Source: an uncultured Planctomycetaceae bacterium
GTDB lineage: Bacteria; Planctomycetota; Planctomycetia; Planctomycetales; Planctomycetaceae
Length of the DNA stretch: 42,944 bases
NCBI GenBank assembly: GCA_964459965.1
Contig: CAYWOV010000001.1
Coordinates: forward strand, 1 to 42,944
Reading direction: 5' to 3'
The translations under genes were made by a program, and so were the position numbers. Each line of letters opens with the position of its first letter. Position 1 is the first letter of the stretch. Shown here in pieces: positions 7,927 through 42,341 of this stretch. Under the pieces are notes generated by a model. That model did no database searches. It saw only the letters and a list, made by a program, of their open reading frames with translations, and was not told the origin of the DNA.

Positions 7927-8055
7927 ACAAAAACGCGACTGATTGATCCAACGACAAAAAATGATTTCACTAAATCACTGCCTGCGCCGGAGATGCCCAA
8001 CAAATTGTCTCACGCCAAGGCGCAGAGACGCAAACCAAACAAGAGGAACCTTGCG

Positions 8056-8316
8056 ATGAGCTGGTGCTTTGGAGCGATCGGAACGCCCGCGCGCGTGGCC
8101 GCGGCGTTGGAAGCCCATAGGGAATATTCCCACGAATCCCAGGCCGAATTCGAGGAGGCGAAGCCGCACTTGGTTGCATTGCTCCGCCTGAATTTCAACG
8201 AGCCCCCTTGCGCTATCAGGCTGGAGGCCTCCGGCCACGCCGCCAGGCAGGCCGGCGTCAAGATCTACGGCTCGGTCCAGGTGCGCATCGAGCCGCTCGG
8301 GATGCAGATGGTGTGA
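8056..8316 (+). CDS. Hypothetical protein
   Basis: ATG preceded by AAGAGGA. The part of track ORF 7993.. upstream of it is a family-A repeat. Confidence 0.5.
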   Translation: MSWCFGAIGTPARVAAALEAHREYSHESQAEFEEAKPHLVALLRLNFNEPPCAIRLEASGHAARQAGVKIYGSVQVRIEPLGMQMV

Positions 8317-8381
8317 CGTCCGCGGAACGTCGCCAATTGGCGACAGCCCCGACCCCGGCGCCTTTGTGTGAGACCTGCCCG

Positions 8382-8762
8382 ATGAGCGTCCTTCCCCCTT
8401 CCGTCCTCCGCCCTCCGCCTTCGGACGTCTGCGGTCCGCCCTGCATCCGCTGCGGCTGCGCCGAGACCAAGGTGCTGAAGGAGCCGGCGGAAAACGAGTG
8501 GTTCCCGTCCGGGCGGGCCCGCTGCCGCTGCTGCGGCCAGGAGTTCGGTTTCGGCCGAGCGGAGGAGGAGGAAGAAAATAAGCCGGAGGGCGGAGGGCGA
8601 AGGGCGGAAGGAGGCCGGGGAGAAAAGATTCAGGAAGTGCCCGTGCGATGTCCCTGCTGCAATTCGATGAATAACGCCGTGACTGGCACCAAGGGCCGGC
8701 TGCGCTCGCGACGCTGCGGCGACTGCGGGGCCACCTTTCAAAGCATCCGACCAGAACGATAA
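8382..8762 (+). CDS. Double zinc-ribbon protein
   Basis: Two CxxC...CxxC pairs (CIRCGC...CRCC and CPCC...CGDC). They are separated by an acidic and Gly/Arg linker that is encoded by a family-C repeat. Confidence 0.55.
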   Translation: MSVLPPSVLRPPPSDVCGPPCIRCGCAETKVLKEPAENEWFPSGRARCRCCGQEFGFGRAEEEEENKPEGGGRRAEGGRGEKIQEVPVRCPCCNSMNNAVTGTKGRLRSRRCGDCGATFQSIRPER

Positions 8763-8790
8763 CCCAACCAAGAACGAGGAGAAACTAGCC

Positions 8791-9141
8791 GTGAAAAATC
8801 GCAACGCGGTCTCTGTCGAGCCCATCGGCAACCTGGTGGTGATCAGGCAAGACCAGGCGTCAGAAACGACCTCGGGCGGCATCGTGCTGCCCGACGCCGC
8901 GCAGGACCCCCGCCGGTTTGGCACTGTCTTGGCTGTCGGCCCGGGACAGTTCCGTACCATCCCCGCCTACACGAAGGATGAACAAGATTCGATGCGTTAC
9001 CCCATGCAGTGCCAGGTCGGCGATCGCGTGATCCTGCCCTTGGGCGGCGGCGACGCGGTCCGGCTGGATCCGGCGGACGAGCAAAGCGAGGTCCTCGTGA
9101 TCTCCGAAAGCCACCTCTGCGGAATCCTGAGGTCGCAATGA
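8791..9141 (+). CDS. groES: GroES-like co-chaperonin (Cpn10)
   Basis: Aligns by eye to GroES along its length: PIGNLVVIR..ETTSGGIVLPDAA...GTVLAVGPG...VGDRVIL...EVLVISESHLCGIL. Confidence 0.85.
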   Translation: MKNRNAVSVEPIGNLVVIRQDQASETTSGGIVLPDAAQDPRRFGTVLAVGPGQFRTIPAYTKDEQDSMRYPMQCQVGDRVILPLGGGDAVRLDPADEQSEVLVISESHLCGILRSQ

Positions 9142-9266
9142 TCGAAGCCATCGCGATCGGTTGGGCCGTCGGCTACCTCTACGGCATTCCCTGGGGATGG
9201 ATCGCCTGGGCGTCCATGTCCTTATTGGCCGATTTTCGGCCGTGCCATTGGAGAAAGCAGCTATGA
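9138..9266 (+). CDS. Small membrane protein (42 aa)
   Basis: ATGA overlap with the groES stop. Hydrophobic, Trp-rich segment (IEAIAIGWAVGYLYGIPWGWIAWASMSLL). Confidence 0.4.
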   Translation: MIEAIAIGWAVGYLYGIPWGWIAWASMSLLADFRPCHWRKQL

Positions 9267-9511
9267 CACCGCTCCAAGAGGCCAAGGCCGAATTGCGGCT
9301 GGTGAGGCCCGATCTGCACTTCGTCTGTCAGAAGCTGGCCGAGGCCCTTGAAACCGGGGACCGGGGACCAGGGGCCAGGGACCAGGGCAAACAGGGGCCG
9401 TCGGCCGAGACCGCCGAAAATGCCGGTGATGGCCACCACCGCCAGCCCGCCGACGTCGAGGTCCGCGCGCCGGTACCGCCGCCGATCCACGCCCGCAAAA
9501 CCCGCAAATAG
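9263..9511 (+). CDS. Hypothetical protein (weak)
   Basis: ATGA overlap with the upstream ORF. The middle of the ORF is a family-E repeat, so coding status is uncertain. Confidence 0.3.
   Translation: MTPLQEAKAELRLVRPDLHFVCQKLAEALETGDRGPGARDQGKQGPSAETAENAGDGHHRQPADVEVRAPVPPPIHARKTRK
9355..9393 (+). repeat. Repeat family E; unit GGGGACC/GGGGCCA stutter
   Basis: Copies at 9355-9393 and 18393-18425. Confidence 0.65.
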
Positions 9512-9954: not shown

Positions 9955-9991
9955 CCGTTTTCCTTCCGGCTTCCGCCCTCCGCCTTTGAAG

Positions 9992-11473
9992 ATGTCCCTC
10001 CGCAGCTTTTTCTCCGGACTGTTCGGCCGCTCCTCGACGCCGCCCGCGCCGCAGGAGGCCGCCGAGGTCATGCGCGGCCGCTGGGGCCGCTGGGACTCCA
10101 AAGACACGGACCGCATGAACCAGGCCCATTGGGCGAAGGTCACGGGTTTGCCTATCAATGCGGAACTCGCCTACGCCAGCAATTGGCTGCGGGCCCAGAG
10201 CGAGTACGAGATTTCTTCCAACCCGGTGATGGAAGGGATCGTCAACAGCTACTGCACCGACGTCGTCGGGCCGGACGGCCCCAGTTACCGCGTCACGAGC
10301 TCCGATCCCGAGTACAACCGCAAACGCGAGAAGATATGGCGCCAGTGGTGGCGGCACGCGGGGGCCAACCGCCAGCTTTCCGGCGTGGAGATCCTCAACG
10401 GCTGGGTCCGCTCGTTGTGGAAGGCGGGCGAGTTTGGGACGCAACTGATCAACGATCCCAACGCGGCCGGGCCGATCAAGGTCCGCCTCCTGCCGGTGCA
10501 CATGCACCGGCTCATGACGCCGCCCGAGTTCCTCGGCGATCCGGCCGTGGCCCTGGGCGTGCGGCGCGACGACAACCGCAACCCGATCGCCTATTACATC
10601 AGCGAGCCCTATATCTTCGGGCCCTTCGAGGTCTACACGGGCGAATTCTACATCGTCCGCTACGAGGATTTCATCCACGGTTTCGAGCAGACGGAAGAGG
10701 ACCAGGTGCGGGGCGTGCCCTGGCTGGCCAGCTCGTTGGACACGGTCGGCCAATTGCGGGACTGGGACAAGTCCATGCTGGACGCGGCCGAGTCGCTCTC
10801 GAAGACCGGCGTGGTTTGGCAGATGGAGGATCCGGGCGCAGCGCCGCAGATCATCCGTGGCTCGACGCCCATGGAACGGGGCCAGCAGACCTTCGGACCG
10901 CCCGGCTATAAGGCGCAACAGCTAAGCCCCACGCAGCCCAGCAGCGATCAGCAGAGTTTTCGCAGCGAGAAAAAGGCGGAGATCGGCCGGGGCCGCTGCA
11001 TCCCGCTGATGTTGATCAACCTCGACAGCAGCAAGCACAACTATTCGTCCGCCCGCTTCGACAATCAGCCCTATTGGCGATCGGTCGCCGGCGTGCAGGG
11101 CTGGCTGGGACGCATCGGCCTGGACCGGATCGAAGCCACCGTGATGCGCGAGGCCGAGCTGGCCGGCGAGCTGGACGAGCCGCCCGAGGATCTGGCCGTG
11201 GCCTGGGGCTGGATCAAGCCGCCCCACGTGGACCCCACCAAGGAGTCTGAGGCCGAGGCCGCCTACATCGAGAACCGCACCGTGCCCTGGTCCGACGCCG
11301 TGATCGCCCACGGCGACGATCCGGACCGCGTCTTGGCCACGCTCAAGCATGACAACGAGCGGATGAAGGAGGCCGGCCTGCCGCCGCTTCCCACCGCCGC
11401 GCCGCTGCCCAAGCCGGGTACCGGCTTCGCCAAGTTCGCCGCTGCCGCCGGCGGACAAGCCACGGGAGATTGA
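9992..11473 (+). CDS. Portal protein (lambda family)
   Basis: ATG at 9992. The upstream part of track ORF 9689.. is Pro/Arg-rich junk plus a family-C repeat. The region NQAHWAKV...NWLRAQSEYEISSNPVMEGIVNSYCTDVVGPDG is typical of lambda gpB-type portals. Confidence 0.8.
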   Translation: MSLRSFFSGLFGRSSTPPAPQEAAEVMRGRWGRWDSKDTDRMNQAHWAKVTGLPINAELAYASNWLRAQSEYEISSNPVMEGIVNSYCTDVVGPDGPSYRVTSSDPEYNRKREKIWRQWWRHAGANRQLSGVEILNGWVRSLWKAGEFGTQLINDPNAAGPIKVRLLPVHMHRLMTPPEFLGDPAVALGVRRDDNRNPIAYYISEPYIFGPFEVYTGEFYIVRYEDFIHGFEQTEEDQVRGVPWLASSLDTVGQLRDWDKSMLDAAESLSKTGVVWQMEDPGAAPQIIRGSTPMERGQQTFGPPGYKAQQLSPTQPSSDQQSFRSEKKAEIGRGRCIPLMLINLDSSKHNYSSARFDNQPYWRSVAGVQGWLGRIGLDRIEATVMREAELAGELDEPPEDLAVAWGWIKPPHVDPTKESEAEAAYIENRTVPWSDAVIAHGDDPDRVLATLKHDNERMKEAGLPPLPTAAPLPKPGTGFAKFAAAAGGQATGD

Positions 11474-11476
11474 AAG

Positions 11477-14272
11477 ATGCGCTGGACCGCCAAAGACGCT
11501 TCCGCAAAGAACAGCCGAGTCAAGGGCTCGCCCAAACTGCAAGCCCAGTGGGCCGCCGTCGCCAACGACGTGCTCAAGCGCCAATTGGCCAAGGGCAAAT
11601 CGCAAAGCGAGGCCGAGGGCGTCGCCATCGCCGCGGCCAACGCCGCGGTGAAGAAAAAGCCCGCCAAGGCGCGCAACTACAAGGGCGACGACGCGGAAGA
11701 TTTTCAACACGGCACCAAGGCGCCCATCGACAAGAAGTACGGCGTGCCGCCCAAGCCGGCGGCCCGCACCGTCACCGAGGCCCCGCCGGTCGCCCGTTCG
11801 GCGGAAGATCTGCTCTGCCGCGTGGCGCCGCTGGCGCCCTCGACGCTCGACGACGAGACCCGCAGCGTGAAGGCCGTGCTGGCCAGCGATGCGCCCTGCC
11901 TCTCGATCGACCTGAAGACCGGCAAGACCTTTCTGGAGGTCTACCGCATGGACGGCATGGAGCCCGTGGCGAGCCAGGTCCCCCTCTGCGACACGCACAA
12001 GCGGGACTCGATCGACCGCGTCAAGGGCTCCGTCCGCGAGATCCACACCGACGGCAGCCAGGCGGTGGGCACGCTCACCGTCGACTCGAGCGAGTATCAG
12101 GCCTGGAGCAAGATCCGCAACCGGCACGTCACCGACGTCTCGGCCGGCTTTCAGCCGCTGGAAACCACCAAGATCGACGCCGGCAAATCGAAAGAGGTTG
12201 CCGGCCGCCTCTACACGGCCCCCGCCGACCGCCCGCTTTTCGTGCACACGAAGTGGCGGCTGCGGGAGGTTTCTCTGACACCGATCGGCTCGGACGTTCG
12301 AGCCAAAATCCGATCATGCACAACCTTTCAAGGAGCAGCGAGCATGAATAAGCACATTCGCAAGTGGCTCGAAACCGAACTGAAGCTTCGGAGCGAAGCC
12401 ACCGACGAAGAGGCCCAGACGTTCTGGGATGCCCTCGCCGAAGCCGAGCGCAAGCGGGCCGAAGAGGCCTGCCGCGACAAGGACGACGAGGACGAGGAAG
12501 ACGACGAGGACGAGGAAGACGACGAGGACGAGCCGCCCAAGCCGTCCACGCACAAGGTCACCCGCCACAGCACGGTGACCGAAGAGTCCCGCGCCGCCGA
12601 GGAGATGGAACGCGTCCGCCAGGAGGCGGAGAAGGCCGGCGCCAAGCGGGGCCGCGAAAAGGAAGTCGCCCGGCAGCGGAAGATCCGCCAACTGGCCGGC
12701 AGCGACGTCCCGGCCGAGATCGTCACCCGGGCGATCGACGAAGGCTGGACGCTCTCCCGCGTCCGCACCGTGTTCTTGAAGACCGTCCGCGAAGGCCGAA
12801 GCCCCAGCGTGGGCGGCGGCGGCGACATCGACGAGGCGGCCATTCGTGAGACGGTCCGCGAAGGCGGACCGGCGATCCACGTCCGTTCGCGCGAGAGCGA
12901 CTGCACCGTGGGCACCATGGCCGCGGCGCTGTTTGTGCGCAGCTACAACGGCAGCCACGACCCGGTCGACCTGATCGGCGGCTACCAACCCTCCGCCAGT
13001 CTCACGGGCGAAGACGGCAAGCCGGAGCCCGGCCGGACCTACACGGTCCGCAACGACGTCACCCGCATGATCGCCGGCCGCAGCCGCACCGCCAGCGAGT
13101 CCCGCCGCAAGGCCAACGAACGGCTCTTGGACCTGGGCGACCGCTACCGCTCGATGTCGCCGATGGACCTGGTCGACGAATGCAACCGCATCGAGGGCCG
13201 CACCCGCACCAGCTACGACCGCGAAGAGCGCGTCCGTGCCGCCATGAGCGGCTCGGCCCTCTCGGCCATCTTCACCCAAAACGTCTCGGCCCAGTTCTTG
13301 GGCGGCTACCTCGACGCCGCCGACACCACGCAAGGCTGGACGACCGAGACTGACGTGCTGAACTTCCTCCAGAACGAGCGGGCCATCTACGGAAAGATGG
13401 GCCAGATGAAGAAGCTCGCCAAGGGCGGCACCGCCGCGGACCTCGACACCAGCGACTGGAACGAGGTCTACAAGATCTTCCGCTACGCCGGAAAGTTCAC
13501 CGTCGATGAGCAGGACTTCATCAACGACCGCTTCGGCGCCCTGGAGCAGATGTCCCCGCAGGACATGGGTCTGACGGGCCGCCAGATCCGGCCCAACCTG
13601 GTCTACGCCCTGCTCTTGAGCAATCCCACGCTCACCCAGGACAGCATCGCCGTGTTCGACGCCAACACGCACAAGAACATCATCACCGGCGCCGTGACGG
13701 ACTTCAACCCCACCACGCCCGCGGCCAACGCCGGGCCGTTCCAGGATGCGACCACCGCGATGGGCAAGCAGCGGCTGCGCAACCGCGTCTTGAACTTGCG
13801 GCCGCGGTACGTGATCGCCGGCACCGACCTCGAATGGGCCGTGAACATCCTCTACAAGAGCCAGCAGCGGATCATCGCTTCCGGCTCCGGCGGCACCTAC
13901 AACCCGCTGGCCGCCGAGGGCGCCAACGTCGAGAGCCGGCTGGACGGCCGTCTGGACCCGCTGGGCTGCTACGACAACGACACGGGCAAGACGTTCTATC
14001 CGTACACGACCACGGGCACCACGGCCGGCCGCAGCGGCATGGCCATCATGGCGGCCCGCCCCGGCGAGCAGGGCGCCAAGACCATCGAGGTCGGCTACCG
14101 CATCGGCACCGGCCGGGCCCCCCGCATCCGCAGCTCGATCCTCCGCGAGGGCAGCGGCCAGTACGGGATGAGCTGGGACGTGAACCTCGATATCGGTGCC
14201 AAGATCCTGGACTACCGCGGGTTGTGCCTGATCACGGGCGGCGGCAGCCAGTTGGCCGCGACCGGACCCTGA
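11477..14272 (+). CDS. Prohead protease (HK97/S78-like) - acidic scaffold - major capsid protein fusion
   Basis: Single uninterrupted 931-aa ORF. N-terminal ChaB-like segment. Protease core (PLCDTHKRDSIDRVKGSV...VSAGFQPL...WRLREVSLTPIGSD). Coiled-coil/poly-acidic scaffold. About 500-aa C-terminal capsid-like domain. Confidence 0.75.
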   Translation: MRWTAKDASAKNSRVKGSPKLQAQWAAVANDVLKRQLAKGKSQSEAEGVAIAAANAAVKKKPAKARNYKGDDAEDFQHGTKAPIDKKYGVPPKPAARTVTEAPPVARSAEDLLCRVAPLAPSTLDDETRSVKAVLASDAPCLSIDLKTGKTFLEVYRMDGMEPVASQVPLCDTHKRDSIDRVKGSVREIHTDGSQAVGTLTVDSSEYQAWSKIRNRHVTDVSAGFQPLETTKIDAGKSKEVAGRLYTAPADRPLFVHTKWRLREVSLTPIGSDVRAKIRSCTTFQGAASMNKHIRKWLETELKLRSEATDEEAQTFWDALAEAERKRAEEACRDKDDEDEEDDEDEEDDEDEPPKPSTHKVTRHSTVTEESRAAEEMERVRQEAEKAGAKRGREKEVARQRKIRQLAGSDVPAEIVTRAIDEGWTLSRVRTVFLKTVREGRSPSVGGGGDIDEAAIRETVREGGPAIHVRSRESDCTVGTMAAALFVRSYNGSHDPVDLIGGYQPSASLTGEDGKPEPGRTYTVRNDVTRMIAGRSRTASESRRKANERLLDLGDRYRSMSPMDLVDECNRIEGRTRTSYDREERVRAAMSGSALSAIFTQNVSAQFLGGYLDAADTTQGWTTETDVLNFLQNERAIYGKMGQMKKLAKGGTAADLDTSDWNEVYKIFRYAGKFTVDEQDFINDRFGALEQMSPQDMGLTGRQIRPNLVYALLLSNPTLTQDSIAVFDANTHKNIITGAVTDFNPTTPAANAGPFQDATTAMGKQRLRNRVLNLRPRYVIAGTDLEWAVNILYKSQQRIIASGSGGTYNPLAAEGANVESRLDGRLDPLGCYDNDTGKTFYPYTTTGTTAGRSGMAIMAARPGEQGAKTIEVGYRIGTGRAPRIRSSILREGSGQYGMSWDVNLDIGAKILDYRGLCLITGGGSQLAATGP
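12344..14272 (+). CDS. Possible nested in-frame product: scaffold + major capsid protein from an internal start
   Basis: AAGGAG at 12330-12335 lies 8 nt upstream of an in-frame ATG at 12344, exactly at the end of the protease domain. Confidence 0.4.
   Translation: MNKHIRKWLETELKLRSEATDEEAQTFWDALAEAERKRAEEACRDKDDEDEEDDEDEEDDEDEPPKPSTHKVTRHSTVTEESRAAEEMERVRQEAEKAGAKRGREKEVARQRKIRQLAGSDVPAEIVTRAIDEGWTLSRVRTVFLKTVREGRSPSVGGGGDIDEAAIRETVREGGPAIHVRSRESDCTVGTMAAALFVRSYNGSHDPVDLIGGYQPSASLTGEDGKPEPGRTYTVRNDVTRMIAGRSRTASESRRKANERLLDLGDRYRSMSPMDLVDECNRIEGRTRTSYDREERVRAAMSGSALSAIFTQNVSAQFLGGYLDAADTTQGWTTETDVLNFLQNERAIYGKMGQMKKLAKGGTAADLDTSDWNEVYKIFRYAGKFTVDEQDFINDRFGALEQMSPQDMGLTGRQIRPNLVYALLLSNPTLTQDSIAVFDANTHKNIITGAVTDFNPTTPAANAGPFQDATTAMGKQRLRNRVLNLRPRYVIAGTDLEWAVNILYKSQQRIIASGSGGTYNPLAAEGANVESRLDGRLDPLGCYDNDTGKTFYPYTTTGTTAGRSGMAIMAARPGEQGAKTIEVGYRIGTGRAPRIRSSILREGSGQYGMSWDVNLDIGAKILDYRGLCLITGGGSQLAATGP
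12482..12532 (+). repeat. 2.8 tandem copies of an 18-bp unit GACGACGAGGACGAGGAA (poly-Asp/Glu run)
   Basis: Read directly. Encodes DDEDEEDDEDEEDDEDE in the scaffold segment. Confidence 0.9.
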
Positions 14273-14292: not shown

Positions 14293-14330
14293 GCGGCGCG
14301 ACCGGCCGCAAAACCGGCCGCGCCGCTTTC
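14293..14330 (+). terminator. Hairpin after the capsid gene (candidate intrinsic terminator)
   Basis: Stem GCGGCGCGACCGG / CCGGCCGCGCCGC (13 bp, 1 mismatch), 8-nt loop, then TTTCCCGGTTTCC. Confidence 0.5.
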
Positions 14331-14369
14331 CCGGTTTCCTTCCCGAGTTTCCCGGTTTCTTTCCCGAAG
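14327..14369 (+). repeat. Repeat family F; TTTCCCGG(T/A) stutter (4 units)
   Basis: TTTCCCGGTTTCCTTCCCGAGTTTCCCGGTTTCTTTCCCGAAG, between the capsid terminator and the decoration gene. Confidence 0.7.
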
Positions 14370-17209: not shown

Positions 17210-17662
17210 ATGCCCAATCCGATCACCATGGGTTACGAGGGCCAGGTCATGGTCGGCCCCGCCGGCGTCACGGCCACGAACCAGTTGCTCAATACCCGCG
17301 ACATGAAGACCACGCACGATCCGGAATACGGCGAGACCACGGTCCGCGGCAACGGCAGCGCACCGCCGATGCACGCCGAAGCCCTCAGCGCGATCAAGTG
17401 GTCAATGACGCTGACCATGCTCAACAACACCAGCGACACGCTGTTGACGACCTACCTGCTGGCGGCGGCCGCCGGCAACTCGGTTTCCGGCGGGCCCCCG
17501 GGCGTGATCGCCCTGCGCACGAAGAACAATTCCGCCGGCAAGGGCTATGACGGCGACGTGAACGTCAAAGTCGAACAGGGCGCGCCGCTCAAAGGCGAAG
17601 CGACCTTGGACTTCACCTTCAGCACCAACAACAACCTGCGAGCCGCCAGCCTGTACGTCTGA
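17210..17662 (+). CDS. Major tail (tube) protein
   Basis: 150 aa in the position upstream of the chaperone and tape-measure genes. The N-terminus MGYEGQVMVGPAG...TATNQLLNTRDM is typical of siphoviral tube proteins. Confidence 0.55.
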   Translation: MPNPITMGYEGQVMVGPAGVTATNQLLNTRDMKTTHDPEYGETTVRGNGSAPPMHAEALSAIKWSMTLTMLNNTSDTLLTTYLLAAAAGNSVSGGPPGVIALRTKNNSAGKGYDGDVNVKVEQGAPLKGEATLDFTFSTNNNLRAASLYV

Positions 17663-17760
17663 CGAAGGCGGAGGGCCGAGGGCGGAAGGGGGAAGGCCGC
17701 GGGCCACGCCCTCTTGAGATCGAACCTAGAACCTAAACCCATTTCGCGGAGAATCTTCCC

Positions 17761-18390: not shown

Positions 18391-18454
18391 CGCCAGGGGC
18401 CAGGAACCGGGGACCCGGGAAACGAAACCTTTTGCAAAGCGGGAGAAACGATAC

Positions 18455-32373: not shown

Positions 32374-32615
32374 CGACCGAAACGCTTTTGCGCCTCGGGC
32401 CGCACGATTGGGTCAATCCGGCGGATATCGCCGCCGTGCGGTGGTTCAGCAGCCCGGTCACGGAGCATTGGGAGCTGCGCATCTGGCACCCGGCTGCCTG
32501 GCCGGCGATGTATTTCGTCGTCGCCCGGGACTGCGAATTGGACGTGGTGAAGGCCCTGGGCATCGAGCCGCGGCCGCCGATCGAGCGCGCGGAAGCGGCG
32601 GAGAAAGTCGATTAG
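32370..32615 (+). CDS. Small protein translationally coupled to csrA (unknown function)
   Basis: ATGA overlap with the csrA stop. 81 aa, Trp-rich, ordinary composition. Confidence 0.55.
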   Translation: MTTETLLRLGPHDWVNPADIAAVRWFSSPVTEHWELRIWHPAAWPAMYFVVARDCELDVVKALGIEPRPPIERAEAAEKVD

Positions 32616-32663
32616 GCGCGGCGGCGCGGCCGCGCGGAAGACAACGAACGAAGGGATTCAACC

Positions 32664-34166
32664 ATGGAAAAGGAGCGGCCCTACCCCGTCGCCGAACTGC
32701 TGGCGATCGCCGAGGGAGAGCACGCCGAGCGCGTGGCGACGCTGGAAAACCTCCGCAACGTGACCGAGGTGCGGAAGAGCTACACCGCGGTGCTCCTCTG
32801 GCTGCACGGCCGCGGGGCGATCTCGCGCGACGTGGCGGCCGACTGGCGGGAGATCGGCGCCTCCTCCGCGGTGCGGCTGGGACAGCGGACGGTGCAGGAG
32901 GCGGTCAAGTTCTGGCGCCGCCTGGGCATCTTGAAAACGACCGCGCGGTATGATAACAACGGATCGTTGATCGCTCCGCTCGCACGACTGGACTGGGGGG
33001 CCGTCCTCGCGGTCATGACGGGCCGGCCGAATGCCGCCGTGCACGAGGCCCCCAGGGCGGAGCGGGTGGCCGAGGCGGAGGGCCGGCATTTCCTTGCCGG
33101 CCCTCCGCATTCTGACCCTTCTCCGGAGAACCCTGGGGCAGAGTCCATTGCCCGCGGAGAGCAGTTTACCGCAGCCACGCAAAGCGCCCAAGGGCAAGCC
33201 GGAAAGGCCCTCTCCACTTCCGGGGGTCCTAGCGCACGGAGGCATACCGACAACGGGGGTCCTAGCGCACCGTGCGCTACCCCTAGCGCACCGTGCGCTA
33301 CCCCTAGCGCACGGTGCGCTAGGGTCCTTACCGCCGACGGGGGTCCTAGCGCACGCGAGCCGCTTCGCCATGGAGCGTACGCGCGGCGTGACTGGCAACG
33401 CGTGCACGCCTGCGCGCACGGTCTTTCCGTCTCCGTATCCGATTCCGTCGTCGACGACGGAGGCGTGCGCCGCGAGGCGCCGCCGGCCGCGGTGCGGTCG
33501 CTGATCGGCGAGGCGGCGGCCTTGCTGGGCATGAATCCGCCGGGCGAAAAAATGCACCGGCTGCTCTCGGCCGCCGCCCTGGCTGCGCTCTGGTTTTGGG
33601 GCCGCGATTGGTTGCTCATCTCGGCGCGAATCATGGGCGAGGACATGAAGGAAGGCAGGGTGAGGAGGCCCACGGGCCTGCTGCCCTGCATCCTGGCCGA
33701 GCAGGCCGTGGCCGTAGGCGGCATGCAAACCATCGATGATCCGGGCGTCCGCCTCTCGCGCTACAACGCGATCATGAGTCCCATCGAGCGCTTCGCCGCG
33801 CGCAGATACCCGCCGCCGGCGGCGCCGCCGCAGCAGCCGCCCGCGGCCGCCGCGGCGCGATCGCGCTACGAGGTCTCCGCGGACGAGCGGGCGGCGCGAC
33901 AGCGCGAAGAGCGGGGAATCATCGCCGCGGCGCGCAATGCGCTCAAGGCCGCGCCCTCCCCTGCCCCGGGGCAGGGCGAAAGCGGGGACCAAGAAAAACC
34001 CCTAGAATTCGCGGGGGAAATGCAGAAGGGGGGCGCGGAACGACAAGGCGAAAGCGAGCAGGGGGAGGGGGATTTCGGGACGGGAGACGGGGAAACGACC
34101 GATCCCCAAATCCCTAAATCCCCCGTCTCTAAATCCCTCGTTTCCGCCGCCGCGCGGCCGCCGTAA
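32664..34166 (+). CDS. Replication initiator-like protein (N-terminal winged-helix) containing the putative origin
   Basis: N-terminus ...VLLWLHGRGAISRDVAADWREIGASSAVRLGQRTVQEAVKFWRRLGIL looks like wHTH. An iteron/palindrome cluster is embedded mid-gene, as in lambda O. The C-terminal tail is a family-D repeat. Confidence 0.5.
   Translation: MEKERPYPVAELLAIAEGEHAERVATLENLRNVTEVRKSYTAVLLWLHGRGAISRDVAADWREIGASSAVRLGQRTVQEAVKFWRRLGILKTTARYDNNGSLIAPLARLDWGAVLAVMTGRPNAAVHEAPRAERVAEAEGRHFLAGPPHSDPSPENPGAESIARGEQFTAATQSAQGQAGKALSTSGGPSARRHTDNGGPSAPCATPSAPCATPSARCARVLTADGGPSAREPLRHGAYARRDWQRVHACAHGLSVSVSDSVVDDGGVRREAPPAAVRSLIGEAAALLGMNPPGEKMHRLLSAAALAALWFWGRDWLLISARIMGEDMKEGRVRRPTGLLPCILAEQAVAVGGMQTIDDPGVRLSRYNAIMSPIERFAARRYPPPAAPPQQPPAAAAARSRYEVSADERAARQREERGIIAAARNALKAAPSPAPGQGESGDQEKPLEFAGEMQKGGAERQGESEQGEGDFGTGDGETTDPQIPKSPVSKSLVSAAARPP
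33222..33354. promoter_or_regulatory. Putative origin of replication: iterons plus palindromes
   Basis: GGGGGTCCTAGCGCAC occurs at 33222, 33255 and 33339. TAGCGCAC(C/G)GTGCGCTA palindromes occur at 33263-33279, 33284-33300 and 33305-33321 (21-bp phasing). Confidence 0.55.
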
Positions 34167-34321: not shown

Positions 34322-35809
34322 GTGGTTACGACAACGAAACGAAGACGCTCTCACGCCAAGGCGCCAAGGCGCAAAGCCAACCAGACGGCGCCGGACAGCA
34401 AGACGAAAGCACCGGCGGCGGATAAAAACCGCTTCGAGCACGATCTCTGGGGGCTCATCGACGGCGCGGAAAAATGGCTGCGGCGGCACCGCGTCCCGCA
34501 ACGAGACTTCGGCCTCTGGACGATGCTGCTGCCGGACGAGGAGTGGCACGTGTCCATCTCGCTGAAGGCGTGGACCGCGAAAGTCGATCGTTGGCTGGAG
34601 GCCTGGCGGAAGGCCGGCTGGCAGCGGGCCCCGGCTGGTCGGGAATACCAGGTCTTCAAGACCGTCGGCGACGTGCCGATGGGCATCCAGTTCGCCGACC
34701 TGGGCAGCGGCGTCTACGCGGTGAGAAAGGGCGACCCGGAGTTTTTCAGCGACACGGATTACATGTCGCTGAGTCAGATCGGTTCCCGGACGACGCCCGC
34801 GGCGGCGGAAAAACTGCTGCTCAAAGAACTCGAGAAATTCCGCCAAAAACGGGCTAAGGTGGAACTGAAGCGCTTGGGCGGTAAGCGCCATCCTCCCCGC
34901 GCCTCTGCGCCTTTGCGTGAGACTCCTTCGGTCAAACCTGGTGCCCCCGGCGGAAACGGCGAGGCCGCCGGCACGGCCATGGTGCTGCGCCAGGACGGCC
35001 CGGACCTGCCGGCGATCGTCTCGCTGGAGGAGGCCGAAACGCTCAAGGAGTGCGAAGAGACGATCCGCCAAAACCTCCATGGCTTTATCGAGGTCGGCCA
35101 GGCCCTGGGGCGGATCCAGCAGGAGCGGCTCTATCGGGGCAAGTACAAGACGTTCGAGGAGTATTGCCGCACGGAGTGGGATTTCGCCCGCGCCTACGCC
35201 TACCGCCTGGTGAGCGCGGCCAGCGTGGTCAAGCGGCTGGAAGTGTCACCAATTGGCGACGGCGGCAAAAGTGGGACGAAGCGCTCCGACCTCCCGGACG
35301 GCCATATCGTGCTGCCGGCGACCGAGTCGCAGGTGCGGCCCCTGACGCGGCTGACCGACCCCAAGCAGCAGATCGCCGCCTGGAAAAAGGTCCTCAAGGC
35401 GGCGCCCCGCGGGGCCGACAACGTGCCGCGGGTGACGGCCGAGATCGTGGAACGGGTGGTGGCCGAGACGATCGGAGAGCCGACGAAGAGGCCGGCGGCA
35501 AACGGGCACGCGGCGATGGAAGAACCTCGCGCGAAGCCGCAAAGCCGCGAAGGAAAAGAGATTCACCACGGAGACACGGAGCGCACGGAGAGGGATCATG
35601 GGCTGCCGCTCTGGAAGCTCGAGGCCGCTACGCTCTTGGCCCTCGACCGCGAGTTGGAAGAGACGGTCAAAACCTATTCGCTCGACGAGCTGGACGAATT
35701 GCTTCTTTTGCTCCGCGACCTGGCCGGCCGCGTGGTGGCATTGCACGCGAAGTGGCGGCAAGGAGGGGCCCGCCGCCAATCCCCAATCCCCAATCCCTCG
35801 GTCCGATGA
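34322..35809 (+). CDS. Multi-domain DNA-binding protein (DUF3102 / ParB-HTH-like central domain)
   Basis: The central segment FIEVGQALGRIQQERLYRGKYKTFEEYCRTEWDFARAYAYRLVSAASVV is typical of phage/plasmid HTH proteins. I suggest the GTG at 34322, after a GGAGGGAGGAAGG stretch. Three repeat elements are read in frame. Confidence 0.5.
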   Translation: MVTTTKRRRSHAKAPRRKANQTAPDSKTKAPAADKNRFEHDLWGLIDGAEKWLRRHRVPQRDFGLWTMLLPDEEWHVSISLKAWTAKVDRWLEAWRKAGWQRAPAGREYQVFKTVGDVPMGIQFADLGSGVYAVRKGDPEFFSDTDYMSLSQIGSRTTPAAAEKLLLKELEKFRQKRAKVELKRLGGKRHPPRASAPLRETPSVKPGAPGGNGEAAGTAMVLRQDGPDLPAIVSLEEAETLKECEETIRQNLHGFIEVGQALGRIQQERLYRGKYKTFEEYCRTEWDFARAYAYRLVSAASVVKRLEVSPIGDGGKSGTKRSDLPDGHIVLPATESQVRPLTRLTDPKQQIAAWKKVLKAAPRGADNVPRVTAEIVERVVAETIGEPTKRPAANGHAAMEEPRAKPQSREGKEIHHGDTERTERDHGLPLWKLEAATLLALDRELEETVKTYSLDELDELLLLLRDLAGRVVALHAKWRQGGARRQSPIPNPSVR

Positions 35810-36768: not shown

Positions 36769-36921
36769 AGCTGCTTCTCCCCTGGAGATGGCTCATCTCG
36801 GCCTGGATCGCCTGGCGGACCCGGCGGGCCTTCAGGCGGGCGCTGCGCGACAAGGGCTTTTCTTGATCCGCCGGAAAAAGGACTCACGCCAAGGCGCTAA
36901 GGCGCAAAGGAGGGAACGGGG

Positions 36922-37212
36922 ATGGTCAGCGACGATTACATTCGGGGCCTGGCGGCGCGGCTCGATCCGGCGGCACAAGCCGAGTTCGGCGAGATCGAAC
37001 GATTGATCCTCAAGCGGTCCATGATCGCCTGCGGCATGGAAGAATATCCGCCGGTCCGGGGAGATTCAACCGGCGCACGCGCTAGCGGCGACATGGTCTG
37101 CAAAATCTGCCTCCAGACCTATGCCGCGCATCCCATGGACTGGCGGGTGATCGGCTATGGCGACGTGCCCTTCCTAAACGTGCTCTGCAACGGGTCCCGG
37201 GTTAAGTTGTAG
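36922..37212 (+). CDS. Hypothetical protein with CxxC...HP...LCNGSRVKL
   Basis: SD GGAGGGA upstream. 96 aa. Bracketed by inverted family-A copies. Confidence 0.55.
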   Translation: MVSDDYIRGLAARLDPAAQAEFGEIERLILKRSMIACGMEEYPPVRGDSTGARASGDMVCKICLQTYAAHPMDWRVIGYGDVPFLNVLCNGSRVKL

Positions 37213-37319
37213 CCCGCTTCCTTTGCGCCTCTGCGCCTTTGCGTGAGATCTGTTCGTCGGCGGGTGCGCGCACGGCTCGGGACCAAAAAAGGTGCAATAG
37301 ACCTTTTTTCCCCAAGTGC

Positions 37320-38177: not shown

Positions 38178-38510
38178 GTAAGAAAGGTTTCGGCAGGTCC
38201 GGGGACTCCAGTTTTGCCGGATGGGGCGCCGGCCGCTTTTCGCGCACCACCGGAACTTGACTTTTTCCCCCGCACGGGTCCTAAGCGTGAGCTAAACTTT
38301 TCGGACTAGGAAAGCCCTGCCTCCCCTTCCGCCTCTGCGGCCCACCCTATGTAGATCGTTTCCCCATCTCGCCGCGCGGCGTGAAGCCTGGGTCTATAGG
38401 TCCCGGGCACAATTCGCGCGGCCGCGGCACCCGTGAGCTTTGCTCCAATGGCCCGCGGCCGCGCGATCTCTTTGCAAAGGGGGAAGGCGGAGGGCGGACG
38501 GGGGAAAAAA

Positions 38511-39501: not shown

Positions 39502-39513
39502 GAACCGAACAGG

Positions 39514-39547
39514 TCTCACGCAAAGGCGCAAAGGCGCAAAGAGGAAA
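39514..39547 (+). repeat. Dispersed repeat family A (representative copy); forward consensus CTCACGCAAAGGCGCAAAGGCGCAAAG
   Basis: Forward copies: 8008-8036, 19233-19263, 28427-28455, 28491-28523, 34349-34377, 35526-35553 (degenerate), 36880-36912, 39514-39547. Reverse copies: 19337-19366, 26447-26484, 29782-29810, 32059-32087, 34899-34923, 37219-37249, 39565-39596, 41637-41670. Confidence 0.85.
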
Positions 39548-39597
39548 CGACATGAACCGCCGTCTTTCCTTGGCGCCTCTGCGCCTTTGCGTGAGAA
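39514..39597. terminator. Long near-perfect hairpin from an inverted pair of family-A repeats
   Basis: TCTCACGCAAAGGCGCAAAGGCGCAAAGAGGAAA ... TTTCCTTGGCGCCTCTGCGCCTTTGCGTGAGA with a 17-nt loop, located between two + strand genes. Confidence 0.5.
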
Positions 39598-39670
39598 TCT
39601 TTCCGCTCGCATTCGTTGCCTGACGTTATCCCAGAAACCGGCGCCTTGGGCGCCGAGAAAAGGAAGAGCC

Positions 39671-39973: not shown

Positions 39974-40086
39974 TCAGAGCAGGGATTGGGAGAGCTGGGA
40001 ATTTCGGGATTTCGAGAACGCCCGAACTCCGTACCCCTAAATCCCTAAATCCCTGACCCCTAAATCCGTCTCTCTGGAGCAAAGCG

Positions 40087-41094
40087 ATGTCCATCGTCAC
40101 GCTGCATACCGGCCGCCGCGTCGCCACGGGCCTGGTGCGCTCAAGCCGCGCGGCGCTTTCTGCCGCCTGGAATCCGTTCGGACACGGCAGCCGCGTGAAG
40201 GCGTTGCCGGCGGCGCCGGCGACGATCATCAACTCGGCCGGCGTCGTCCTGGACCCGTACGGCAACAGCGACATTCCCGACCCGCGGGACACGAGCTACC
40301 CGGGCGATCCTGTGGGCAATTGCACCTGCGCCGCGATAGCCACGATCCTGGTGGCGCTCTCGCAGGTGACCGGGCTGGCCGGCGGCCAGTTGAATCTACT
40401 GGCCTCGATGGTCGTCCAGTGGTGGCAAACCAACAATCCCCAATGCGACATCCTCCACGCGCTGGAGATGCTGCAAACGGTGCCCATGGTGGACGCCAAG
40501 GGAAACCCCTACACCATCGGCGCGAGCGGCGTCATCGACTGGAGCAACTACGAGGTCGTGCAGCAATCTCTGAACCTGTTCAAGGCCATCGACAACGGCC
40601 TGGATTCCAGCCCGCTGCAGGCGGCCGTGGGCAACTCGGACGGTTTTATCGTCGCGGGCGTCACGAAGCCCCTGAGCAATTACGATCACTCGACGCCCAC
40701 CCTCGACGTCGGCGAGGCCGGGGCGATCGCCGACGCCTGGAAGGTCGCGCTGGACACGAACAAGATCAACGCCACCGAGCCGGTCATCGGCATGGCCACC
40801 TGGGGAGTGAAGGGCATCGTCGAATTCGAGAGCTATGTGAATATGAACGGGGAGGCCCATGTGATCCTCACCAGCACGGCCCGCGGCGATTCGGCCGCGT
40901 GGAACCCCGTGGCGGAGAGCGATTTTACCGATCTGACGGGCGAGCCGCCGTCGGCCGACGAGCCCACGCCGGCCCAAAAGCTGCCGACGCAGCGGGCCAT
41001 CGAGGTGGCGCGGCGGGCCGCGCGGCACTACCGCCGCGATCCGGCCCACGTCCTGCAAGTGCTCGAGCGGCTGGAAAGCGCGTTTCCCGAGTAA
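40087..41094 (+). CDS. Putative papain-like cysteine peptidase
   Basis: The Cys motif PVGNCTCAAIATIL and the His candidate NGEAHVILT are weak, motif-only evidence. 335 aa. Confidence 0.35.
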   Translation: MSIVTLHTGRRVATGLVRSSRAALSAAWNPFGHGSRVKALPAAPATIINSAGVVLDPYGNSDIPDPRDTSYPGDPVGNCTCAAIATILVALSQVTGLAGGQLNLLASMVVQWWQTNNPQCDILHALEMLQTVPMVDAKGNPYTIGASGVIDWSNYEVVQQSLNLFKAIDNGLDSSPLQAAVGNSDGFIVAGVTKPLSNYDHSTPTLDVGEAGAIADAWKVALDTNKINATEPVIGMATWGVKGIVEFESYVNMNGEAHVILTSTARGDSAAWNPVAESDFTDLTGEPPSADEPTPAQKLPTQRAIEVARRAARHYRRDPAHVLQVLERLESAFPE

Positions 41095-41250
41095 GACGGA
41101 AGCCAGACGGCCATGGACCCACACCGATCACCACGGAGACACGGAGAGGGACGGCCTAGAACCAATCCCCAATCCCCAATCCCTAATCCCTTTGTTGAAC
41201 AACCCCCGCGGCGCGCGTCGCCGCCTTCCCCTTTTTTGGAGAGCATCGTC

Positions 41251-41622
41251 ATGAAGTTTCCCAGCGTCCTCTGTTTGGTCTGTCTGTTCATTGCCGCGGT
41301 CCTCTTGCCGCTGGCGTCGCACGCCGTGGCCGCCCAGCCGGCCTCCGCGTCGGTCTGCAATGCCTGTGCCGGCGGGGTCTGCCCGTTTTGCAACGTCTGT
41401 CCGCAGCGGGAAAAGATCGCCGTCCCGGCGACGGCCGAGGTGAAGTCCACTTGTGCAACGGTTGCGGCGACTCGTCCTACCGCCTCGGTGCGCGCGGGCG
41501 TGCAAGCGATCGTGGCCCGGGTGAGATCGCTTGTGCCCTCGCCCTTTGGGCGTCGATCCGCGATCTTGACTGGCCGGCTCTTGCCGAACCGTCCGCACCT
41601 GCTGCCGAGGCGGCGAACCTAA
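41251..41622 (+). CDS. Secreted Cys-rich protein
   Basis: Signal peptide MKFPSVLCLVCLFIAAVLLPLASHAVA, then CNACAGGVCPFCNVC. Confidence 0.55.
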   Translation: MKFPSVLCLVCLFIAAVLLPLASHAVAAQPASASVCNACAGGVCPFCNVCPQREKIAVPATAEVKSTCATVAATRPTASVRAGVQAIVARVRSLVPSPFGRRSAILTGRLLPNRPHLLPRRRT

Positions 41623-41681
41623 TACTTGGTTGCCGTTCGCGCCTCTGCGCCTTGGCGCCTTTGCGTGAGGAGTTTCGTGCC

Positions 41682-41849
41682 ATGACTTCCTTGCTCGTTT
41701 GCGGGGCGGTCGCGTTGGGCGCCTACTTGTTGGGCTACCACGACGGCAAGCGTCGAGGTCGCAACGACCTGGACAAGATCCTTGGCGACTTCGGCAAACT
41801 GGCCCGCGAGGTGGGCCGTCAACTGTTGGGAAAAGACGAATCGATATGA
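41682..41849 (+). CDS. Small N-terminally anchored membrane protein (holin/spanin-like by position)
   Basis: 55 aa: TM LLVCGAVALGAYLLGY followed by a charged tail. Confidence 0.45.
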   Translation: MTSLLVCGAVALGAYLLGYHDGKRRGRNDLDKILGDFGKLAREVGRQLLGKDESI

Positions 41850-41973
41850 CCACGGGGACACCGAGAACACGGAGACAAACCCGGGGGGGCGGAAGCCAAG
41901 TGCTTCTTTTCTCCGTGTTCTCTCGGGCACCGACCGCTTGCGGTTGGTCGCCGTGGTGAGTAAGGAGCGTCTC

Positions 41974-42297
41974 GTGCACGCCATACCGCAGAACGTCGAT
42001 TGGAACGCGGTCTACGCGATCGGGGCCCTGGGGCTGGCGATCTGCGGGATGCTGGCCGGCATCGCCTGGCGGATGTCGCATCGCTTCACGCGGCTGGACG
42101 ACGGCGTGAGGCAGGTTTCCCGCGGGCAGCGGCGGGCCTGGCGGAAGATCCGCGAGCATGGGGAGCGTCTGCAAGCCCTGGAGCTTCGGCAGCCCGAGCC
42201 GCGGCCGCCGGTGGTGCAGGGACCGTGGACGAGCGGCTACGTCCAGGGCGACTTCAATCCGCTGGGCTGTGATCGCGCCCCCCCGTCGGGCGCGTGA
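41974..42297 (+). CDS. Membrane protein with a coiled-coil tail (lysis-accessory candidate)
   Basis: AAGGAG lies 6 nt upstream of the GTG at 41974. TM VYAIGALGLAICGMLAGIAW. Confidence 0.45.
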   Translation: MHAIPQNVDWNAVYAIGALGLAICGMLAGIAWRMSHRFTRLDDGVRQVSRGQRRAWRKIREHGERLQALELRQPEPRPPVVQGPWTSGYVQGDFNPLGCDRAPPSGA

Positions 42298-42341
42298 GAA
42301 AAGAGGGATTTCGCTAACAGGAATTTAGGGGGACGCTGCGC

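Follow-up and report, generated by a model that had tools for sequence, protein, structure and literature searches.

The window (the whole stretch of DNA analysed, 42,944 nucleotides) is a planctomycete phage genome carrying about 45 short stuttered repeats, and it raises the question of whether these are regulatory signals of the phage or DNA of another kind. On the evidence below, the second alternative appears the better one: the repeats resemble REP/MITE-like DNA of an undescribed kind.

Tandem Repeats Finder detected 34 non-redundant arrays whose period is 7 or 8 in the window, as compared with 3.7±1.7 (maximum 8) in 30 dinucleotide-preserving shuffles of it, an excess far above chance. 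All 34 lie beyond approximately 8.0 kb, the preceding part being array-free, and the density in the window is about 1 per kb. Fuzzy searches, for which 40 shuffles gave about 0–0.25 per family, found 14 copies of family A (7 on each strand), 5 of family B plus 1 reverse copy, 10 of family C (5/5 by strand), 7 of family D (3/4 by strand), 2 each of the GGGGATT family and family E, and 1–2 of family F. These values come close to the hand counts of the first-pass annotation; the seven families proposed there are better taken as a loose lower bound, A and B being related via CRCRRAGR and GGGGATT constituting one more family. The arrays are 100% identical in contigs from three other public samples and are thus not an assembly artefact. 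The copy number of one 21-nt repeat of the window differs between samples. The features are as follows (window coordinates, strand, description).

8011–8035, +, family A module, degenerate, 2 mismatches to CACGCNAAGGCGCNNAGGCGCNAAG
8387–8426, −, family C array, CCTTCCG type, in zinc-ribbon ORF; pairs with 8584–8614 over 163 nt
8584–8614, +, family C array, CGGAGGG x3.6, in zinc-ribbon ORF
9349–9387, +, family E array, ACCGGGG x5
9962–9986, −, family C array, 5 nt before the ATG at 9992
14326–14367, −, family F array, TTTCCCGG/TTTCC type, 21-nt super-period
17663–17704, +, family C array, directly after the stop of ORF 17210–17662
18395–18423, +, E/F-like array, AGGGGCCAGGAACCGGGGACCCGGGAAAC
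19237–19261, +, family A forward arm, hairpin 19228–19368
19337–19362, −, family A reverse arm, same hairpin
26455–26479, −, family A module, tail of minus-strand ORF 26439–26681
26691–26722, +, family D array, AGGGATTT x3.9
28428–28452, +, family A module, first part of A-B-A cluster
28455–28485, +, family B module, ACCACGGAGACACCGAGGGCACGGAGACA
28494–28518, +, family A module
29030–29055, +, family B array, C-terminal tail of ORF 28629–29075
29782–29806, −, family A module, C-terminal tail of DUF5131 ORF 29068–29838
29848–29885, +, family D array
29957–29977, +, family C forward arm, hairpin 29950–30035
30011–30036, −, family C reverse arm, same hairpin
30045–30076, +, family C forward arm, hairpin 30040–30150 (−76 kcal/mol)
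30110–30144, −, family C reverse arm, same hairpin
30539–30589, +, family D array; weak pairing with 30595–30617
30595–30617, −, family D array
30755–30781, −, family D array, N-terminal codons of ORF 30733–31920
31933–32015, no strand, hairpin with single-unit arms CTCACGCGGAG ... CTCCGCGTGAG; terminal 'head' as in family A
32060–32084, −, family A module, upstream of the CsrA gene
32615–32637, +, GGCGCGGC x2.9 array; relatives have CGCGCGGAG or GCG runs at the same place
34102–34137, −, family D array, tail of ORF 32664–34166; relatives have AAGGATG or AGTGTTC arrays instead
34352–34376, +, family A module; position kept in both relatives
34895–34919, −, family A module, translated as an interdomain linker, peptide kept in orthologues
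35529–35552, +, A-like array, CGCGAAGC, in protein linker
35567–35591, +, family B array, same linker as 35529–35552; the L018 orthologue has GGAAGGC x4.9 instead
35774–35798, −, CCAATCC x3 array, GGGGATT family, C-terminal tail
36885–36909, +, family A forward arm, bracket of ORF 36922–37212
36922–37212, +, 96-aa ORF between inverted A arms; relatives' homologues overlap neighbours, no adjoining arrays
37221–37245, −, family A reverse arm, bracket of ORF 36922–37212
38320–38340, −, family C-like, degenerate, CCTCCCCTTCCGCCTCTGCGG
38479–38504, +, family C array
39517–39541, +, family A forward arm, three perfect units, hairpin 39510–39600
39569–39593, −, family A reverse arm, same hairpin
39997–40018, +, family D-like array
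40035–40067, −, family D array, 20 nt before the ATG at 40087
41132–41147, +, family B array, two perfect units
41160–41191, −, CCAATCC x4 array, GGGGATT family
41643–41667, −, family A module
41849–41877, +, family B forward arm, hairpin 41840–41932
41910–41927, −, family B reverse arm, same hairpin
42305–42332, +, degenerate family D array, 9 nt before the ATG at 42342

The array midpoint is intergenic in 23 of 39 cases (6.0±2.3 at random positions), and 23 arrays are no more than 60 nt away from a gene boundary (9.2±2.6 expected), which bears out the proposed bias towards gene boundaries. Arrays just before start codons, also described at first reading, were found at 9962–9986 (start at 9992), 36885–36910 (36922) and 42305–42332 (42342). 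The statement that almost every intergenic spacer is filled was too strong, a clear array being present in 17 of the 30 spacers of at least 25 nt, or about 21 when degenerate copies are counted; the enrichment itself holds. As for the proposed translation within ORFs, direct support comes only from the copy at 34895–34919, whose peptide PPRASAPLRE is kept in two orthologues, and several other in-ORF copies lie within public gene calls.

Family A, the main family, is a 25–35-bp module of the form (T)CTCA-(CGCNAAGG)3 with an outer 'head', (T)CTCAC. Its exact 25-mer, in the same forward-loop-reverse layout, is present at no fewer than 120 genome loci (GC 34–73%) from at least nine phyla as assigned from record titles (Planctomycetota, Acidobacteriota, Alpha/Gammaproteobacteria, Cyanobacteria, Verrucomicrobia, Lentisphaerae, Bacteroidota, Chloroflexota and 'Deltaproteobacteria'), and the 25-mer was seen in 50 viral contigs; by our own arithmetic (21 fixed bases, 596 Gb, uniform base composition) chance would give about 0.3 hits. 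The Planctomycetota that carry it belong to Pirellulales, Gemmataceae, Planctomycetaceae and Singulisphaera, so that the occurrence suggested for this phylum was right and extends to eight other phylum-level groups. Families B and C are found together with A chiefly in MAGs of Planctomycetota, and multi-copy elements with conserved loops are seen inside single genomes (Planctomycetota OFTM393; Lentisphaeria). Among published repeats, the Geobacter metallireducens GGGACCG elements have the same heptamer as family E of the window (ACCGGGG), paired octamer sites are described in that species too (PMC2700814), and TAACTGA repeats are common to several phyla (PMC4679880).

Arrays without a shared origin could arise by local polymerase slippage in GC-rich non-coding DNA, as would fit the variable 21-nt repeat and the prevalence of heptanucleotide repeats, which in many prokaryotes outnumber all other long simple-sequence repeats (Mrazek 2007, as summarised in PMC4679880). 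This explanation is largely refuted, and we give it hardly any credence: the same 25-mer, flanking head and inverted-pair layout recur across phyla, three independent samples give identical arrays, and the first 8 kb of the window as well as relatives with 60–61% GC go without them. The fixed positions of the octamer are kept across phyla far better than in a neutral hairpin, which implies some sequence-specific recognition and counts against the reading favoured below.

A reverse partner was found 20–120 nt downstream of 69 of 137 forward copies and upstream of only 12. The paired arms co-vary in register, their variable positions being identical in 222 of 296 cases, versus 174±6 with permuted partners. 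Among the long hairpins described in the first-pass annotation, 19233/19337, 39514/39565, 29957/30014 and 30051/30114 are strong (19228–19368, 39510–39600, 29950–30035 and 30040–30150; −57 to −80 kcal/mol, z −5.4 to −8.9), whereas 41848/41909 is moderate (41840–41932; z −2.8); the D-family pairs fold weakly (z −2.4 and +0.2). Inverted arms also bracket GxxExxY genes (TIGR04256, E 1e-40) in Nostoc, Flavobacteriales, Planctomycetota and Lentimicrobiaceae, and other small ORFs, including the 96-aa ORF of the window (36885–37245). At 3 of 9 GxxExxY genes the arms adopt the opposite, reverse...forward configuration, and a simple model of a cassette with terminal inverted repeats is therefore incomplete. 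No candidate transposase was found in the window or in the sampled loci, and T-tracts, target-site duplications and an Rfam match were likewise not found.

Such pairs might serve as punctuation of RNA: selection would keep the arrays, above all those in inverted pairs, because they fold into approximately 25–35-bp duplexes in long polycistronic phage transcripts. Cut by RNase III or blocking exonucleases, the duplexes would separate cistrons, stabilise upstream messages or allow bracketed ORFs to be excised as paired-end mRNAs. The most stable hairpins lie exactly between genes, their arms co-vary, the one at 19237/19337 is conserved in the relative L045 with one compensatory change, and an RBS and start codon are sometimes placed inside the loop (39541–39569; L012 439–533). 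The brackets round small ORFs may also be likened to the intervening sequences of 23S rRNA, which are excised by RNase III. However, roughly one array in two is a solo copy, and no orientation bias relative to transcription was found among phage copies or among solo copies of cellular genomes (11 sense, 13 antisense). Mismatches in the stems, read on the sense strand, comprise 18 G·T and 28 A·C, with no excess of G·U over A·C; this, together with the equal frequency of both orientations, is a DNA-level signature. Furthermore, D-family pairs fold no better than shuffled sequence, related phages with the same gene modules manage without arrays, and structure alone would not fix one 25-mer across phyla. 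Selection as RNA punctuation is thus improbable, although it deserves some weight.

The arrays are restricted to certain lineages. IMG relatives of the window carry 0.8–2.3 arrays per kb, as against 0–0.15 in other relatives, among them the Blastopirellula marina prophage. That prophage and a Planctomycetes MAG contain homologues of a window gene. The remark that such repeats are not a standard phage feature proved half true, many IMG/VR contigs having 0.3–2 such arrays per kb. The same spacers hold arrays of different unit families in related phages, and dozens of unit types occur among related contigs. Between phages mutually 90–94% identical the alignment breaks down across arrays, and small array-flanked ORFs are gained or lost. 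Some copies are old and have kept their place, namely the one at 34352, the one encoding the peptide at 34895 and those of the hairpin 19237/19337, and these could have a function.

This turnover bears on the proposal that each unit family consists of tandem sites for one nucleic-acid-binding protein (the phage CsrA on GGA-containing units, ribosomal protein S1, cold-shock proteins or a host regulator), the arrays forming a regulatory network. MacGregor proposed the same for the TAACTGA repeats (PMC4679880). Units B, C and D contain GGA, a CsrA homologue is encoded in the window, several arrays end 5–25 nt before a start codon, and the constancy of the octamer would also fit. The more distant relatives, the B. 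marina prophage included, nevertheless still encode CsrA and are almost array-free, which speaks against the suggested link to this protein; family A, the commonest, has no GGA. A shared code read on the transcript is likewise unsupported, given the antisense orientation of half of the copies, the G·U balance and the exchange of families at the same position in relatives. We regard a binding-site network as very doubtful.

Boundary modules might alternatively provide short homology for gene or cassette exchange between phages or between phage and host, and be kept as mosaic junctions. Array-flanked small ORFs are present or absent between phages 92% identical, and segments in which the window resembles its relatives stop beside arrays (32083|32105, 35770|35776, 37243|37252). 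The gene neighbourhood of ORF 36922 also differs from that of its homologues, which in array-poor relatives overlap their neighbours without a spacer, the A-arm bracket being found only in the window. The coincidence is weak evidence, however, as any mosaic phage loses homology at gene boundaries; 25 bp is little for homologous recombination to work efficiently, and inverted pairs round short loops and copies in protein linkers would be left unexplained. A linker function is accordingly quite unlikely.

We favour, with about an even chance of being right, the reading of the arrays as horizontally shared, DNA-level modules of the REP/MITE/STRR type that were acquired in a planctomycete host; RNA hairpins and recombination junctions would then likely be by-products rather than the selected function. 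Host-derived and REP-like, as first suggested, is the best short description, and the phylum-level evidence (occurrence in Planctomycetota, prophage and MAG homologues) points to a host origin. Bacteria and their phages would exchange horizontally a diverse pool of small modules, each of 25–35 bp with 3–5 tandem copies of a 7–8-bp unit, present as single copies or in inverted pairs whose heads point outward, like other dispersed repeats of this type. Paired arms form a long near-perfect hairpin with a 15–120-nt loop, or bracket a whole small gene. The data above show that the modules exist, where they sit and how they are built, that family A is identical across phyla, and that the arrays turn over and are confined to some lineages. 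Their arrival would take place at the DNA level by insertion or recombination, although no clean filled-versus-empty site was found at high identity.

In this scenario a temperate planctomycete phage lineage took up modules from the pool of its host. Copies would last only at sites that put up with additional DNA, namely intergenic spacers, the ends of ORFs and the linkers between protein domains; modules of about 24 nt that lack stop codons can be read through there. They turn over much faster than genes while remaining stable between strains, and would in effect make the intergenic spacers of the phage.

The period-7/8 arrays of the window stand clearly apart from chance. TRF detected 34 non-redundant arrays in the window, none of them before 8 kb, where dinucleotide shuffles yield 3.7±1.7, so that the stuttered repeats described in the first-pass annotation do exceed shuffled expectation. 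A fuzzy search, for which the shuffles gave about zero, returned 14 copies of family A (seven on each strand), five of family B plus one reverse copy, ten of family C (five in each orientation), seven of family D (three and four), two of the GGGGATT type, two of family E and one or two of family F. Intergenic positions hold 23 of 39 arrays where 6.0±2.3 were expected, which bears out the suspected bias towards gene boundaries, and among the copies located in ORFs one half is found no more than 60 nt from an ORF end. The wording that almost every spacer is filled was overstated, since 17-21 of the 30 spacers carry arrays. As for the long hairpins expected from opposite copies, four of the five are exceptionally stable (z from -5.4 to -8.9), and the fifth (41840-41932) is moderately so (z -2.8).

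The arrays reside in a phage genome of 42.9 kb and 65% GC with nearly all of its genes on the + strand. Three other public samples hold contigs identical to parts of the window, and the sequence is therefore not an assembly artefact. Exact-protein look-ups for near relatives yielded only contigs identical to the window, GenBank phages gave no megablast match to 24 kb of it, and no relatives of protein 34523-35809 were found in a scan of viral and JGI metagenome contigs. ORF 36922-37212 has homologues in a prophage of Blastopirellula marina and in a Planctomycetes MAG, in each case within a syntenic module that also encodes an integrase and CsrA, which points to Planctomycetota as the host phylum. 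The window also encodes a DUF5131 protein, a DNA methyltransferase, a weak integrase-like protein and the following regulator:

32128-32373, CsrA homologue (window)

This CsrA homologue is kept throughout the planctomycete (pro)phage group (the window, L179, L180, L182-L184 and L212), with arrays or without them, and its carriage by a phage is of interest in itself.

Several other features of the genome deserve description. No tRNA was found in the window by a tRNA scan. A 47-nt stretch (26894-26940), 100% identical to positions 11069-11115 of the related phage sequence L045 amid diverged DNA, looks like a tRNA 3' end and, given this likeness, is probably the attP core; ARAGORN found no complete tRNA at this place. 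At the end of the window a 147-nt repeat (2.7 copies, 42550-42944) runs past the last position and is similar to a 39-nt repeat near the start (173-265), a resemblance suggesting that the genome is circularly permuted and that a fibre-like ORF rich in repeats crosses the junction, where the reading frames do not fit together exactly. A 503-nt gap free of arrays (27338-27840) contains the best sigma-70-like promoter match (27531-27560) together with several hairpins and may have a regulatory role. The DUF5131 gene is separated from the integrase-like gene by 894 nt without a convincing ORF (29839-30732), in which two C-family hairpins of very high stability and a pair of family D follow in tandem. 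Within ORF 32664-34166, 21-nt units of the form CCTAGCGCAC(C/G)GTGCGCTAGG (33228-33345), each with an 8-bp palindrome, occur as 2.9 perfect copies plus degenerate ones, and a public contig of a different sample has one unit fewer; the units resemble iterons or origin-binding sites. The large ORF 11477-14272 carries an acidic in-frame repeat, GACGACGAGGACGAGGAA (2.8 copies, 12482-12532), that is unrelated to the period-7/8 families.

At the strain level the arrays are identical in contigs from the three other samples and the sole variable is the 21-nt repeat. Copy-number instability by slippage, as it defines STRR, was rejected on this ground, and the same invariance makes it highly improbable that the arrays are slippage noise. 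In related phages (50-85% amino-acid identity) the same spacers and linkers are occupied, often by a different unit family. After the orthologue of ORF 32664-34166 there is ATCCCCAA in the window, AAGGATG in L018 and AGTGTTC plus CTGAAAA in L012. Likewise, the N-terminal codons of the orthologues of ORF 28629-29075 contain three unrelated repeats, namely a perfect 24-nt duplication in the window (28680-28728) and, at this exact spot, a heptamer hairpin in L014 and four copies of GGGATTGC in L018. In two phages whose genes are 90-94% identical the array regions are unalignable and the array-flanked small ORFs differ. The few old copies comprise the forward A copy before 34523, the translated linker PPRASAPLRE and the hairpin 19237/19337 with one compensatory change. 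No site was recovered in both filled and empty form, and L018 is too diverged in the spacer upstream of the CsrA gene for insertion edges to be defined there. In more distant relatives that share the modules the array density is 0-0.15 per kb, and their genes overlap where the window has array-filled spacers of 100-200 nt; the arrays are therefore an addition specific to the lineage, and one that creates these spacers.

Family A is a defined module, more than a stutter. It reads (T)CTCA-CGCNAAGG-CGCNNAGG-CGCNAAG followed by purines, with variation at the N positions only, and its heads account for the excess of the heptamer CTCACGC (25 occurrences against 10.2±3.1 expected). An exact-match scan with the family A 25-mer over contigs representing one genome per species matched at least 120 loci. 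Among the matches listed are isolates of Nostoc, Cylindrospermum, Sphingomonas and Oligosphaera and MAGs of Planctomycetota, Acidobacteriota, Verrucomicrobia, Bacteroidota, Chloroflexota and 'Deltaproteobacteria', with a locus GC of 34-73%; 50 viral contigs also contain the 25-mer. The occurrence of such motifs in Planctomycetota, as put forward in the first-pass annotation, thus proved correct, and families B and C co-occur with A in MAGs of this phylum. Family B was seen in 14 further viral contigs and family D in 10, the latter number being, by a rough estimate, maybe no more than a 17-base pattern would give by chance in so large a collection. Other 7/8-mer arrays are present in many of these B and D contigs at 0.3-1.2 per kb.

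The arrangement of the copies is equally defined. Among the matches listed, a reverse copy is placed 20-120 nt downstream of 69 of the 137 forward copies and upstream of only 12, so the heads of family A face outward. The termini read CTCACGC ... GCGTGAG, the arms being tandem and not self-complementary. The inner distance between arms is mostly 20-150 nt, with a second mode at 420-520 nt that corresponds to a bracketed small gene, and some single genomes have more than one copy, with the loop conserved. At their variable positions the two arms match in register (222 of 296 identical, where permuted partners give 174±6), and the inverted pair is therefore one unit. Target-site duplication is absent at the complete hairpins, as 50 of 69 have no flanking direct repeat and the others only one of 1-3 nt.

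In Nostoc, Flavobacteriales, Lentimicrobiaceae and Planctomycetota the bracketed gene is GxxExxY (TIGR04256, E about 1e-40), and in Nostoc the bracket lies at an orthologous site in two species. The genome loci with this arrangement are the following.

GxxExxY genes within inverted family A arms
L072, 4644-5117
L136, 6450-6924
L123, 5702-6222
L118, 6638-7200
L087, 5476-5976

The opposite arm configuration surrounds the GxxExxY genes of loci L053 and L100, and at other loci the bracketed small ORF differs from GxxExxY. The ORFs between arms encode GxxExxY or unrelated small proteins and no transposase was found among them. The window shows the same form of bracket at 36885-37245, with the 96-aa ORF 36922-37212, of no assigned family, inside. 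Joint travel of this ORF and its arms was rejected, since elsewhere the homologues of the ORF lie close against their neighbours with no arrays beside them.

Several results bear on whether the arrays act as DNA or as transcript. Their orientation is unbiased in the phage, and solo copies in cellular genomes comprise 11 sense and 13 antisense. Mismatches in the sense-strand stems are 18 G·T against 28 A·C, and the G·U excess that is a sign of selection at the RNA level is absent. There is no enrichment of intrinsic terminators (19 terminator-like sites in the window against 17.4±4.0 expected), most arrays lack a T-run, a window scan showed no enrichment of promoter consensus, and Rfam 15, searched with the whole window at E≤1, returned only below-threshold hits to miRNA-precursor-like long hairpins. 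Orientation, stem mismatches and the lack of T-tract enrichment or of an Rfam family all make it unlikely that the arrays are RNA punctuation maintained by selection. The shared protein/RNA-binding code that the first-pass annotation had suggested, and a link to CsrA, were not supported, given the neutral orientation, the stem mismatches and the relatives that keep CsrA without arrays. Arrays as CsrA/RsmA-binding sites or sponge RNAs were specifically rejected, as family A has no GGA, half of the copies are antisense and relatives encoding CsrA are array-free. The fixed positions of the octamer are constant across phyla, implying recognition by some sequence-specific factor, as a binding-site code would demand; such a code is nonetheless very unlikely in view of the array-less relatives that retain CsrA. 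G-quadruplex formation by the G-rich families was considered too; these families are equal on both strands and family A is incapable of forming a quadruplex. The evidence from orientation, stem mismatches, T-tracts, Rfam and CsrA, together with the absence of target-site duplication, favours a DNA-level, orientation-neutral element over a transcript signal, with the constancy of the octamer weighing on the other side.

Such elements have counterparts among known repeats. Cyanobacterial STRR are reportedly short tandemly repeated heptamers, described by Mazel in 1990. Like STRR and long simple-sequence repeats, the arrays consist of 5-11-nt head-to-tail units above chance and mainly in intergenic positions. 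With STRR and the TAACTGA repeats they further share 2-6 tandem 7-nt units, often just before a start codon, a unit common to distant phyla and a transfer mechanism that is not known. TAACTGA repeats occur in Beggiatoaceae, Cyanobacteria and Bacteroidetes (PMC4679880), and TAACTGA arrays were present in three of the genome loci fetched here. In BOGUAY they have mostly one orientation, upstream of genes (PMC4679880), whereas the window arrays take both orientations equally; the head, the inverted pairs and the gene brackets are not described for TAACTGA and are not known to have been described for STRR. Geobacter metallireducens contains 49 elements of four GGGACCG repeats, inside and between genes (PMC2700814), and this is the heptamer of family E (window 9349-9387; L033 2319-2351). 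The same genome has sites of 4-5 tandem octamers or heptamers that form pairs across the two strands with variable spacing. All these elements were described in one genome only, with a putative annotation as regulator sites or RNA elements, and were not linked to phages or gene brackets (PMC2700814).

The likeness to REP, BIME and REPIN resides in short, extragenic, dispersed and lineage-restricted repeats, often in inverted pairs, with a conserved head and no target-site duplication. In REP each unit forms an imperfect palindrome of 20-40 bp, headed by GTAG or CGTC, and is associated with a RAYT (Y1 HUH) transposase. By contrast, the arms described here are tandem 7-8-mers that are not self-complementary and carry the head (T)CTCAC, and no RAYT gene was found among the window proteins scanned. 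The layout of forward arm, loop and reverse arm, present in several copies within single genomes, agrees with that of MITEs, in which terminal inverted repeats enclose 50-500 bp of non-coding DNA in many copies, but there is no target-site duplication and no autonomous transposase-encoding partner among the ORFs between arms. The Correia/NEMIS elements of Neisseria and the ERIC elements of enterobacteria, of about 100-150 bp, have terminal inverted repeats, lie between operon genes and form RNA hairpins cut by RNase III or RNase E. They are limited to a genus or family, whereas the families described here span phyla; Correia elements duplicate a TA target site and are constant in their interior, in contrast to the variable loops and internally repetitive arms of the present elements. 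The Nostoc SDR elements, said to have been reported by Elhai et al. in 2008 as about 24 nt (21-27), apparently mobile, intergenic or in hairpins and with no enzyme known, resemble the modules in size range and hairpin context. Intervening sequences of 23S rRNA and attC cassettes, the latter promoterless, also enclose a small ORF or nothing within an inverted-repeat stem. The present elements lie outside rRNA and have arms of tandem repeats, and they lack the R''/R' GTTRRRY cores (RYYYAAC ... GTTRRRY) and an IntI; the sole integrase-like hit in the window matches a generic tyrosine recombinase weakly. A full-text literature search found no paper on the repeat string, and the searchable literature yielded no description of brackets for GxxExxY, PDDEXK_3 or IVS proteins, nor any account of the head-outward inverted architecture or of the abundance and turnover of arrays in phages. 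What is already known consists of scattered descriptions (cyanobacterial STRR; TAACTGA, PMC4679880; Geobacter, PMC2700814).

In the best-supported reading, small stutter-arm modules of a REP/MITE/STRR-like kind, members of a pool with a wide distribution, have colonised the phage, which probably acquired them in its planctomycete host. The host-derived REP-like system proposed at first survives to this extent, the palindrome and head of REP being absent. The modules would persist at sites that tolerate insertion, a step that we infer. RNA hairpins and recombination junctions are likely consequences, and it is quite unlikely that the arrays are in themselves recombination linkers. More tentatively, these modules could possibly represent a novel class of elements present in many bacterial phyla and borne by phages as vectors, in which brackets of stutter arms (three to four tandem 7-8-mers with a conserved head) are empty or surround small genes, for example those of the PD-(D/E)XK GxxExxY family, and produce no target-site duplication, with ssDNA-hairpin, HUH-like, nuclease-driven or RNA-mediated spread as candidate routes.

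These results have practical consequences. The modules contain no stop codons and gene callers therefore read through them, so that ORFs are spuriously extended and 'hypothetical proteins' composed of HAKAQRRK, TEDTE, PNPQSP and similar peptides are predicted. The exact start of two public contigs of the window phage falls on an array (32060 and 35776), suggesting that arrays break short-read assemblies. The long hairpins will affect cloning, PCR and RNA-structure prediction, and the annotation of arrays in this phage as terminators, operators or CsrA sites is to be avoided. The architecture is now defined, GxxExxY is a candidate partner family, and turnover can be followed in phage genomes. 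Should the modules prove mobile, they would rank with the smallest mobile DNAs known and be unusual for an identical 25-mer across at least nine phyla, and the nature of the STRR, TAACTGA and Geobacter heptamer elements, an old loose end, would become testable.
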